From positions 1-26,613 of the forward strand of contig JBLHHD010000001.1 in the NCBI GenBank assembly GCA_047614605.1: a stretch of DNA of 26,613 nucleotides, given 5' to 3'. This document shows, piece after piece, positions 11,002 to 21,362 of the stretch. The DNA is from Alteromonadaceae bacterium. GTDB lineage: Bacteria; Pseudomonadota; Gammaproteobacteria; Enterobacterales; Alteromonadaceae. Each line of letters begins with the position of its first letter. The stretch's first letter is position 1. Under the pieces are notes generated by a model, which was given only the letters and a program-made list of their open reading frames with translations, was not told the origin of the DNA and did no database searches. A program made the position numbers and the translations under genes.

Positions 11002-11364
11002 TTATTCCAATAAAAATCCCATCAGCGAAACATCCTCAGCATCGACCCACATAGTGCAGCTGTTGGTGCCAGTGATATAGACTTTTTTACCCCTCATTTG
11101 GGCGGCTAGCAAAAAGCTGTACTGTTGCTGACCCAGCTCGGTGCTCATATTTAATGCCCAGCGTTTTGAACCGCTTGGCAGACCGCTATAGCTGGCACAG
11201 CCAGGTGGCGAGATATGATTTTCAGTGTAAAAAAACATTAGGCTTTTGTCGGCTGCGGCAGCAAACCCGATGGTTTCGATTTGCACCAGACCATTGCCGG
11301 TACCCGCGAGGGCTGTTAAGGGGGTGAGTAACGATAAAATGGTGAGTAAAATTTTATTTTTCAT
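11002..11364 (-). CDS. Small secreted protein, 120 aa, resembling an AB5-toxin B subunit (StxB-like OB-fold; inference)
   Basis: Signal peptide MKNKILLTILSLLTPLTALA, two Cys in the mature part, and the segment QYSFLLAAQMRGKKVYITGTNSC. Confidence 0.75.
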   Translation of the reverse strand: MKNKILLTILSLLTPLTALAGTGNGLVQIETIGFAAAADKSLMFFYTENHISPPGCASYSGLPSGSKRWALNMSTELGQQQYSFLLAAQMRGKKVYITGTNSCTMWVDAEDVSLMGFLLE

Positions 11365-11429
11365 TGATGTAATCCATTAATATTGCTGATCTGCGGTTGT
11401 TGTTTGTTGCCGCTGATTGAAGAGGAGCT

Positions 11430-11438
11430 ATTCTAGCA
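11430..11438 (-). promoter_or_regulatory. Candidate extended -10 promoter (TGnTAGAAT) for the 120-aa gene
   Basis: The minus strand reads TGCTAGAAT about 65 nt upstream of the ATG; no good -35. Confidence 0.35.
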
Positions 11439-11768
11439 CTGATGGCGAAAGCTTTTCTCCCAAAGTTTACACAGAGCTGCAATCGCCAATAAACTTCGCG
11501 GCTTATTAACAAGCGCTAGACAAAAGCAGAATCAGCTAATAGAATGGCCGGGTAATTTGGGTATCAAAATGCCCATTTTCGGTCTAAAATTGATTGGTTT
11601 AAAGGGATTGAGTTTTTTGGGAAGAGGTTACTAATACACTTCACTCGTTATACACATCTTAAGCTTTATCAACTAGTACCATTTATAAGTCACTGTCAAT
11701 AGTGGCTATTGGTGTTTTGCCGATCATTGTTATTTGTTTATTCAACAGGTTTAAGGAAAGTGGTAAAT

Positions 11769-20324: not shown

Positions 20325-20989
20325 TGATATTAAAAGACTTTTTTTTATACCCTGGGCTGGGAGATTATCCTGATGAAATCGTTAATCCATGCAGGTACGA
20401 AACCAGAAGTATTTGTCACTTTTTAGAGAGGGAGCTTAAGGGGCTGAAGTTTGCGGCGGATGGCTTTAAGCGTATTTGTTTTATTGGTATGCCCTCACCA
20501 CTAACGCAGTGTGTAGTTAACAGCACAAAGGTATTGAGTGTCGAAATAGACTTTGACGAAGCCCAATACCTTGGGCTGGTGAAAAGTGAGGAAGTGCTTA
20601 ATCGCTTTTTTACCACACTGTTGCTGGCAGGGTTTAACAAGTGTAAAGCACAGTTTGATATACCGCTGGCAGAGTTATCTGCAGGGTTAGAGAAGTTTCA
20701 AGCGGGTAATTATATTAATCAATGGTGCTTTAAAACCCAGACTATCAAAGGACTGGGTATTAAGTGTGCGCTAAACTGTGAAATGACCACTGCACAATTT
20801 CGTTTAACTTTGCTGATCACCAAAGGTAAAGAGGTGTTATTTGAGCAACAGATTTTAACCACCAAGCCTGATGAAATAGTGTTTGCTCACAAGTTCAAAC
20901 GAGTAGCACTGATGGACGATAAACTGGTGGTGTTTGATAAGTTTGACAACCCGTTGTTTGAATTGGCGGTTGCTGAGCTGGGGCTTTGA
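20324..20989 (+). CDS. Probable cognate immunity protein, 221 aa, cytoplasmic
   Basis: Start overlaps the rhs stop (TAATG), no signal peptide, canonical toxin-immunity position. Confidence 0.75.
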   Translation: MILKDFFLYPGLGDYPDEIVNPCRYETRSICHFLERELKGLKFAADGFKRICFIGMPSPLTQCVVNSTKVLSVEIDFDEAQYLGLVKSEEVLNRFFTTLLLAGFNKCKAQFDIPLAELSAGLEKFQAGNYINQWCFKTQTIKGLGIKCALNCEMTTAQFRLTLLITKGKEVLFEQQILTTKPDEIVFAHKFKRVALMDDKLVVFDKFDNPLFELAVAELGL

Positions 20990-21023
20990 TTAATTGTAAT
21001 AAGTAGTAAAAAAGGAAAGCAGT

Positions 21024-21362
21024 ATGAAAGTATTAATGATGGGTTTAATGTTGAATCTTTGCGTTTCATTTTTAGCGCACGCGACGGCAAAAGATGTATT
21101 TAATGTAAAGGTTACGGGTATATCCGTTTATCCAATTATAGGCGCGACACATATTCGCGTTGACCCTTTACCTGACCTGACGGGGCTTACTTGCACAAGC
21201 CCTTATTGGCTGGTACTTGATAACAATGCTAAAGCTTATGATGCTACGCTGTCGGTGCTGATAACGGCTCAAACGACTAAGCAAAACATTAATCTGGGCA
21301 TTGATGACCTGTATGGCGGCGCATTTTGTCAAATCGCCAAAGTCGATTTAATTGTCAATTAA
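21024..21362 (+). CDS. Small secreted protein, 112 aa, second StxB-like/OB-fold candidate
   Basis: AAGGA RBS 34 nt after the immunity stop; signal peptide ending LAHA. Two Cys in the mature part and the segment TLSVLITAQTTKQNINLG...C. Confidence 0.75.
   Translation: MKVLMMGLMLNLCVSFLAHATAKDVFNVKVTGISVYPIIGATHIRVDPLPDLTGLTCTSPYWLVLDNNAKAYDATLSVLITAQTTKQNINLGIDDLYGGAFCQIAKVDLIVN

Follow-up and report, generated by a model that had tools for sequence, protein, structure and literature searches.

A 26,613-nucleotide stretch of DNA from an Alteromonadaceae bacterium (GenBank assembly GCA_047614605.1, contig JBLHHD010000001.1; hereafter the window, which is the whole 26.6-kb contig) carries a giant RHS toxin gene and an overlapping immunity-like gene, P0003, set between two genes for small secreted proteins, P0001 and P0002. 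Our results revealed that these two small proteins belong to one unannotated family that, in Gammaproteobacteria, is genetically coupled to Sec-exported, single-chain, TcB/TcC-like RHS toxins, and structure prediction assigns to both of them, with high confidence, an OB fold of the type seen in AB5 toxin B subunits. By analogy with those toxins, we put the probability at roughly 45% that the small proteins oligomerise, leave the cell by way of the type II secretion system (T2SS), attach to carbohydrates on cell surfaces, and do the targeting for the RHS weapon. The genome to which the window belongs (G000) is incomplete, with 3.29 Mb in 530 contigs and a completeness of 79%. The parts of the locus, in window coordinates, are the following.

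11002-11364, (-) strand: P0001, secreted protein of 120 aa (signal peptide residues 1-20, mature protein 100 aa)
11365-11768: divergent intergenic region between P0001 and the RHS gene, 404 bp, the presumed promoter region
11769-20324, (+) strand: RHS gene, 2,851 aa; the open reading frame (ORF) is open from TTG 11709
20324-20989, (+) strand: P0003, 221 aa; its start overlaps the RHS stop (TAATG)
21024-21362, (+) strand: P0002, secreted protein of 112 aa (signal peptide residues 1-20, mature protein 92 aa)

The gene order in the window thus runs from a glycogen operon through P0001, the 404-bp gap, the RHS gene, P0003, and P0002 to further genes. The likely start of the RHS gene is the ATG at 11769, which has the ribosome-binding site AAGGAAAG in front of it and lies exactly 404 bp from the divergent P0001 start. 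P0002 begins 34 nt past P0003 and has the ribosome-binding site AAAGGAAAG in front; the short distance behind the immunity-like gene and the good ribosome-binding site make its cotranscription probable. Scans for promoters and terminators found nothing above shuffled sequences, and in the 404-bp region they gave consensus-level promoter-like sites only. An earlier note on this stretch had read the two small proteins as Shiga-B-like, pentameric partners of the RHS toxin, and the coordinates and distances on which it built (the 404-bp and 34-nt gaps and the gene ends) all hold on recomputation.

A family of small secreted proteins

The signal peptides of P0001 and P0002 are typical and end in A-x-A, and P0001 displays two conserved cysteines and the helix motif YSFLLAAQMRGKKV. 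Compared directly by BLASTP, the two proteins match weakly (E 0.07), and six-frame searches of related genomes gave relatives of P0001 at 30-38% identity; for P0002, they gave a single relative. When an iterative profile was run over the small ORFs from related loci, it converged on 35 signal-peptide proteins, P0001 and P0002 included, all of which have A-x-A signal peptides and a mature size of 80-100 aa. Their common features are a first strand with G-K-V, a cysteine, the helix Y-S-x-L-L-x-A-x-x-x-G-K-x-V, a further strand, and a second cysteine. Neither cysteine varies among 148 family members; in alignment, the second falls on the StxB cysteine that follows strand 4, and the first is placed elsewhere.

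A leave-out profile, built from 29 mature relatives from other genomes and without P0001, P0002, or the closest homologue of P0002, gave mature P0001 a score of 62.1 bits and mature P0002 one of 26.5 bits, against 9.9 and 8.0 bits for the best of 2,000 shuffles. Since these scores far exceed those of the shuffles, we place P0001 and P0002 in one family, and, since they were obtained with mature sequences, the shared pattern is no signal-peptide artefact. That pattern had been the starting point of the earlier note: the motifs it quoted are present in both proteins, the likeness it saw between them is borne out as homology, and the Stx1B string it gave agrees with the natural stx1B gene of a Stx1a phage.

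The family is large and nameless. A HMMER scan of 1.84 billion cluster representatives returned 9,684 proteins at E <= 0.001, with 1,428 at E <= 1e-10; the family representatives that we looked up are all called "hypothetical protein", and none of them matches Pfam. For P0001 and P0002, searches of Pfam (E <= 0.1) and NCBIfam gave no match, and word-indexed homology searches with P0001, P0002, and a third member, P0006, returned only the queries themselves or a fragment. P0006, which comes from a forest-soil metagenome (L029:945-2495), is a protein of 516 aa with one signal peptide, exactly five tandem family domains, and proline-rich linkers, and, judging from its sequence, it could be a covalently linked pseudo-pentamer. 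Two other representatives carry two domain copies.

One named Pfam family touches this one. A DUF5992 (PF19454) gene (L038:3046-3363; G023:C3:22057-22356) lies inside the family array downstream of the RHS gene of genome G023, and the family profile recognises it at E 7.5e-5; DUF5992 therefore appears to be one branch, or slice, of an unnamed superfamily. P0001 and P0002 themselves fall below the Pfam threshold of DUF5992, and one of 35 aligned relatives reaches E 0.057, so that the relation of P0001 and P0002 to DUF5992 would be one at superfamily level. Full-text literature searches found no paper mentioning DUF5992, a family without a described function.

Genetic coupling to RHS toxins

Among 401 genomes sampled evenly from the same order, with SpvB used as the RHS marker, 43 carry the family and 56 SpvB-type RHS; 29 carry both, and independence would predict about 6. 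Family genes lie within 15 kb of an SpvB match, on the same contig, in at least 20 of the 29 double-positive genomes, from at least six families, whereas chance would give about 3% in each genome for a neighbourhood of 30 kb. Of the 150 best family matches, about 86 fall within about 15 kb of an SpvB match. These co-localisation counts are hand tallies over related genomes that are not independent of each other, and they are floors, because the assemblies are fragmented and only 11 candidates were scored per genome. In a class-wide sample of 299 other genomes, the family was found in 14, no two of which come from one taxonomic family; nine of these 14 carry SpvB, and in three the two are co-localised. 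The association with signal-peptide FG-GAP RHS genes on which the earlier proposal depended was thus found in many genomes.

The layout of these loci recurs. Family genes or arrays adjoin RHS genes in G023, G053 (Gallaecimonas pentaromativorans), G051, G001, G329, G077, and G334, and in four genomes other than that of the window the giant neighbours of the arrays are, by Pfam, SpvB/FG-GAP/TcdB_midN/RHS proteins. Single or in tandem, the family genes stand immediately upstream of the RHS gene, immediately behind the immunity gene, or in both places, whatever the toxin tip, and at RHS-linked family genes the spacing is operon-like (10-35 nt). Specifically, in G023 about 20 family genes surround two RHS genes, one full and one partial, all within 24 kb; in G053, the RHS gene is followed by an immunity-like gene and then by 11 family genes; and in G329, an RHS gene and an immunity-like gene precede four family genes that are 10-20 nt apart. 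The RHS gene of G077 is flanked by family genes on both sides, and G334 has a divergent upstream copy in the same layout as P0001 in the window. Paralogues within arrays are diverged, at 15-35% identity.

The congeneric genome G001 shows which parts of the locus travel together. Its RHS homologue is 48% identical to that of the window in the stalk and about 25% in the shell; after it come another toxin tip, a different immunity-like gene (an ankyrin lipoprotein), and then, in the same position, a counterpart of P0002 that is 29% identical to it. This comparison implies that the toxin cassette is exchanged and the B-like gene remains with the shell.

Orphan immunity arrays, too, usually have this look, with diverged paralogues following a toxin-immunity pair (Zhang et al., 2012, PMC3482391), and a signal peptide places the family proteins where an incoming toxin must pass. 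Both points would suit a protective role in the periplasm, in which the small proteins neutralise the incoming RHS toxins or shells of competitors as a second immunity layer and the arrays are the counterpart of orphan immunity arrays. We nevertheless consider such a role quite unlikely. One fold is kept whatever the toxin tip, and many of the copies stand in front of the RHS gene; the cytoplasm is where a nuclease does its work; and the fold matches receptor-binding subunits, not known immunity families. Further, the window has the separate, overlapping P0003, which lacks a signal peptide, and other loci have distinct immunity-like genes of their own. The narrower proposal that the small proteins are themselves the cognate immunity proteins was rejected, given that a separate overlapping gene fills that place and that the fold is constant across tips.

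Some stretches with family genes have features of their own. IS200-like (Y1 transposase) genes lie directly beside arrays in three genomes (L033:2716-4766, L034:9724-11227, and L035:3-998), a hint that arrays move or recombine as cassettes. In L030 (G035:C1:879688-885201) and L032 (G180:C53), 4-10 family genes are interspersed with genes for further small proteins that have signal peptides; no RHS gene was found in the stretches examined, and G035 has no SpvB match at all. Upstream of the RHS homologue of G001 (L043:395-3543; G001:C59), minus-strand ORFs are full of the repeated words FQSTHPRRVR and VSIHAPAKGAT, a pattern usual where short DNA repeats are translated; the stretch may be a CRISPR-like or REP array.

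Predicted fold and relation to AB5 B subunits

AlphaFold2 models built with the mature-family alignment are confident for both P0001 (pLDDT 94.3, pTM 0.85) and P0002 (pLDDT 92.0, pTM 0.82) and have an OB fold with the order b1-b2-b3-long helix-b4-b5 (E-E-E-H-E-E). When these models were compared with the PDB by Foldseek, AB5 B subunits made up the majority of the top 50 matches for each. Those of P0001 comprised ArtB, a CT/LT hybrid, pertussis subunits, PltC, EcPltB, LT-IIb, CfxB, PltB, and Stx2a B, with a template-modelling (TM) score of 0.45-0.56 and a probability of 0.85-0.99. The best matches of P0002 were LT-IIb and LT-IIc B (TM 0.64-0.68, root-mean-square deviation 3.1-3.6 Å, E 0.004), followed by pertussis S2-S5, PltC, ArtB, and PltB/PltBd, with TM up to 0.70 (range 0.55-0.70). 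The remaining matches were generic OB folds (SSB, RPA, SilF, CipA).

The OB folds foreseen by the earlier note are therefore predicted with confidence for the mature proteins, and AB5 B subunits dominate their matches. Its label "Shiga-B-like" stands in part: the AB5-B-type fold and a local StxB motif support it, while the name is too narrow, given that LT-II, pertussis, and PltB subunits are closer and SLT_beta is silent. At the level of sequence, the family profile matched only Shiga toxin B chains among 177,635 distinct PDB sequences (E 0.013 with signal peptides, 0.005 for mature sequences), over a helix-strand-Cys stretch of about 28 residues. An hhalign comparison of the mature family with an alignment of Stx1B, Stx2B, and Stx2eB gave a probability of 52% (E 1.5e-4), again over the helix-strand-Cys stretch, and one with Stx2B alone gave 4%; a probability of 81% against Stx2B with signal peptides included was discounted, because the signal peptides align. 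The nearest named clusters in the ESM Atlas are DUF5992 (the nearest), SubB, and StxB. We regard common descent with StxB as plausible, with P0001 and P0002 lying outside the Shiga B family as Pfam defines it.

The likeness to AB5 B subunits (LT-IIb/LT-IIc, pertussis S2-S5, PltB/PltC, ArtB, SubB, CT/LT-I, CfxB, and StxB) extends over several features. Like them, the proteins studied here are Sec-exported, small, with mature sizes inside the range of about 70-125 aa expected of B subunits, and have a predicted OB fold; a conserved cysteine follows b4 directly, and the helix-strand-Cys motif differs little from that of StxB. The side-by-side paralogous genes recall pertussis S2-S5 and PltB/PltC, and the producers encode a T2SS. 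The differences concern the partner, above all. The A subunit of AB5 systems is an ADP-ribosyltransferase, an RNA N-glycosidase, a subtilase, or a metzincin, whereas here none of these is linked and the neighbour is an RHS cocoon toxin. Further, no AB5-type A-subunit gene with an A2 tail adjoins P0001 or P0002, whose neighbours are the RHS toxin, the immunity-like gene, glycogen genes, and an SNF2/SWIM pair. The Pfam families SLT_beta and Pertussis_S2S3 do not match P0001 or P0002; the first cysteine, which is N-terminal in StxB, lies in the b2-b3 loop in P0001 and P0002; and arrays here reach 10-20 genes.

The RHS toxin, its immunity-like gene, and the surrounding genes

The RHS protein (P0004) is a single TcB/TcC-like chain with a Sec signal peptide and an fn3-like N-terminal stalk before the SpvB domain. 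Its annotated parts are the following.

14040-14570, (+) strand: SpvB domain, residues 778-954 (Pfam PF03534, E 3.9e-15)
15120-16661, (+) strand: FG-GAP beta-propeller and TcdB_toxin_midN (PF13517, E 1.6e-15; PF01839; PF12256, E 3.5e-5)
19380-19607, (+) strand: RHS repeat-associated core closing the shell, with a DPSGY-type self-cleavage motif (TIGR03696, E 6.1e-14)
20022-20276, (+) strand: Tox-URI2 nuclease toxin tip (Pfam PF15653, E 1.5e-11)

A hydrophobic stretch and a lysine-rich linker precede the Tox-URI2 tip, and the sequence relatives of the protein in the PDB are the YenB N-terminus and Photorhabdus Rhs1. In Tc toxins, the propeller/midN part of TcB docks on TcA. P0003, the product of the overlapping gene, has no signal peptide and matches no known family in Pfam or NCBIfam; it has a confident ESM model, and the unnamed family to which it belongs is dispersed among several phyla. 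Its position and its overlap with the RHS stop make it a candidate cognate immunity protein and, since the RHS payload is a nuclease tip with an immunity gene, the targets are probably bacterial.

With P0003 as the putative immunity gene, the locus has the full defining architecture of the TcdB/TcaC class of polymorphic RHS toxins (PMC3482391), namely a signal peptide, SpvB, an integrin-like propeller, RHS repeats, Tox-URI2, and an immunity-like gene. The fn3-like stalk is a difference on the RHS side, and no small B-subunit-like partner genes were found in the description of the class.

A second RHS paralogue of this genome (G000 contig C73:2234-9109) has a near-identical N-terminal start (signal peptide, E-x-W-I-P-I) and runs off the contig end; a gene for a 598-aa lipoprotein lies upstream of it. 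As for the rest of the window, the first gene of the glycogen operon (1893-2735, 280 aa) covers positions 537-713 of the 713 positions of the carbohydrate phosphorylase profile and looks like a truncated glgP. Past P0002 comes a 132-aa gene of unknown function on the opposite strand, and then, at 22453-26398, an SNF2 helicase with a DUF3670 domain (1,028 aa) and, 4 nt on, a SWIM zinc-finger protein (284 aa), a duo that looks like a conserved gene pair.

Delivery machinery and proposed function

For other RHS and Tc toxins, recognition is the task of a TcA pentamer or of a type VI secretion system (T6SS) spike. Neither is encoded in the window, as had been noted before: domain annotation of the window genes shows no PAAR, VgrG, or TcA. 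With no PAAR or VgrG nearby and a Sec signal on the RHS protein, the locus differs from those of T6SS-delivered Rhs effectors. The TcA docking domain PF18276 gave no match in G000, G001, G023, G051, or G053, where control genomes were equally silent and G000 is 79% complete. G051, a complete genome in a single contig that has the pairing, lacks the T6SS sheath gene TssC; G001, G023, and G053 have it, and it was not found in G000, at the completeness just given. The T2SS, through which cholera toxin and LT pass out of the periplasm, is represented by GspD in all five genomes checked.

The same machinery bears on another possible role, that of a helper in export or assembly, in which a periplasmic oligomer keeps the 300-kDa RHS protein soluble or passes it to the T2SS or the outer membrane and has no part in target recognition. 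The genetic coupling would fit such a helper, as would the fact that both partners are Sec substrates and that a T2SS is present. A chaperone, however, is usually encoded by one conserved gene, whereas the arrays here hold 5-20 paralogues at 15-35% identity, and no known chaperone relatives of the fold are among the top structural matches. We think this role very improbable.

Two known systems help to place the proposal that we favour. The Tc (ABC) complexes of Photorhabdus and Yersinia have a comparable cocoon, in which SpvB, a propeller, and an RHS shell enclose a C-terminal toxin, and the YenB N-terminus is matched by the RHS protein; B and C are separate there, whereas here they are fused in one chain with a Sec signal. 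Their TcA pentamer is a fivefold receptor-binding partner, and, by analogy, the B-like proteins would supply one here. The immunity-like gene of our locus makes a bacterial target probable, and an injection channel like that of TcA is beyond what an OB-fold protein of 10 kDa can form. Bacterial teneurin-like proteins (bioRxiv 10.1101/2025.11.11.687626) resemble the toxin studied here in being Sec-exported RHS/YD shells with polymorphic toxin tips and immunity genes, and that 2025 preprint states their delivery as unexplained. They have the teneurin superfold, not an SpvB/FG-GAP TcB-type front end, and in the preprint no B-subunit-like neighbours are described for them.

In the targeting role to which we gave a probability of roughly 45% above, P0001 and P0002 would be exported by Sec and would be oxidised and oligomerise in the periplasm, probably as rings of five, as AB5 B subunits do. 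The single indirect hint of such a ring is P0006, with its five domains on one chain. The oligomers would be released through the T2SS that these genomes encode and would bind a cell surface, tethering or aiming the exported RHS cocoon at target cells, and the B-like proteins would in this way take the recognition role of the TcA pentamer or T6SS spike. Their ligands would probably be bacterial surface polysaccharides: if any glycan is bound, bacterial surface glycans are the likelier ligand, because a nuclease tip with an immunity gene suggests that the targets are bacteria. The paralogues, diverged to 15-35% identity, may represent alternative or mixed binding specificities. A more far-reaching version is a two-part toxin, in which the Sec/T2SS-exported RHS cocoon is a giant "A", AB5-B-like rings are its carrier, and the paralogue arrays provide switchable or mixed targeting against competitors; this we put forward tentatively and regard as somewhat doubtful.

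Several observations weigh against a targeting role, and the first group concerns genetic context. Fourteen of the 43 family-positive genomes have no SpvB match; solo family copies, which are weak members, stand in housekeeping contexts of this genome; metagenome contigs show family genes with unrelated neighbours; and whole arrays occur without RHS nearby, some of them beside IS200-like transposases. Nor does a family gene lie upstream of the C73 RHS paralogue of this genome or upstream of the RHS gene of the congeneric G001. Because many family members are far from any RHS gene, the RHS linkage is frequent and strong, and it is not obligatory.

These SpvB-negative genomes, solo copies, and arrays without RHS, together with the transposases beside some arrays, are what one would expect of an independent secreted lectin or adhesin, with a part in attachment or matrix or as a stand-alone or orphan B-like effector, that merely shares variable, recombination-prone islands with RHS genes. 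A precedent exists in the orphan B subunits known from the pertussis-type family (PMC11610972). Such an independent function sits poorly with the tight, co-oriented, operon-like placement at RHS genes, which recurs in at least six families and in other orders, far above chance, and we judge it rather unlikely.

The second group of points against a targeting role concerns fold and mechanism. The Foldseek E values are modest (0.004-0.1, none <= 0.001), and the TM score of P0001 is only about 0.5. The StxB sequence match is local and marginal, and a deeper, 148-sequence profile weakens it to E 0.2-0.3, for which reason homology to StxB specifically is not established by sequence; the alignment with known B subunits is too weak for their binding residues to be carried over. 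Pfam SLT_beta (PF02258) matches neither P0001 nor P0002 (E <= 0.1), and the model picks up none of the B-like family genes in five genomes. The five-domain P0006 is a database singleton, and two-domain fusions exist too. For the oligomer, the ligand, and the contact with RHS, we infer from predicted monomers and gene linkage. Finally, a B5 ring by itself could not account for a nuclease getting across two bacterial membranes; the passage of the nuclease through the target envelope is likewise explained by none of the three alternatives (lectin or adhesin, periplasmic protection, and export helper).

Novelty and implications

No description of B-subunit-like proteins coupled to RHS toxins was found in the polymorphic-toxin survey (PMC3482391), in the AB5 review (PMC11610972), or by full-text searches. 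The RHS toxin itself is of a known kind; what is new is the B-like family and its coupling to RHS, which joins two known kinds. How Sec-exported RHS/teneurin-like cocoons are delivered when neither a TcA syringe nor a T6SS is at hand is a gap that has been openly acknowledged (bioRxiv 10.1101/2025.11.11.687626), and a widespread, unannotated family with a predicted B-subunit fold at the RHS loci of many aquatic Gammaproteobacteria is a concrete candidate for the targeting step. A cultured carrier exists in Gallaecimonas pentaromativorans, with one RHS gene and an 11-gene array.

With their predicted fold, these proteins would also show that the AB5 B-subunit fold reaches far past the enterotoxins directed at hosts, and the link between RHS genes and arrays would give DUF5992 its first functional context. 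If the two-part toxin proposed above is true, the family would be the missing delivery and targeting module for a large class of RHS toxins that have neither TcA nor a T6SS, and the AB5 B-pentamer scaffold would have been recruited to, or would have arisen in, interbacterial warfare.

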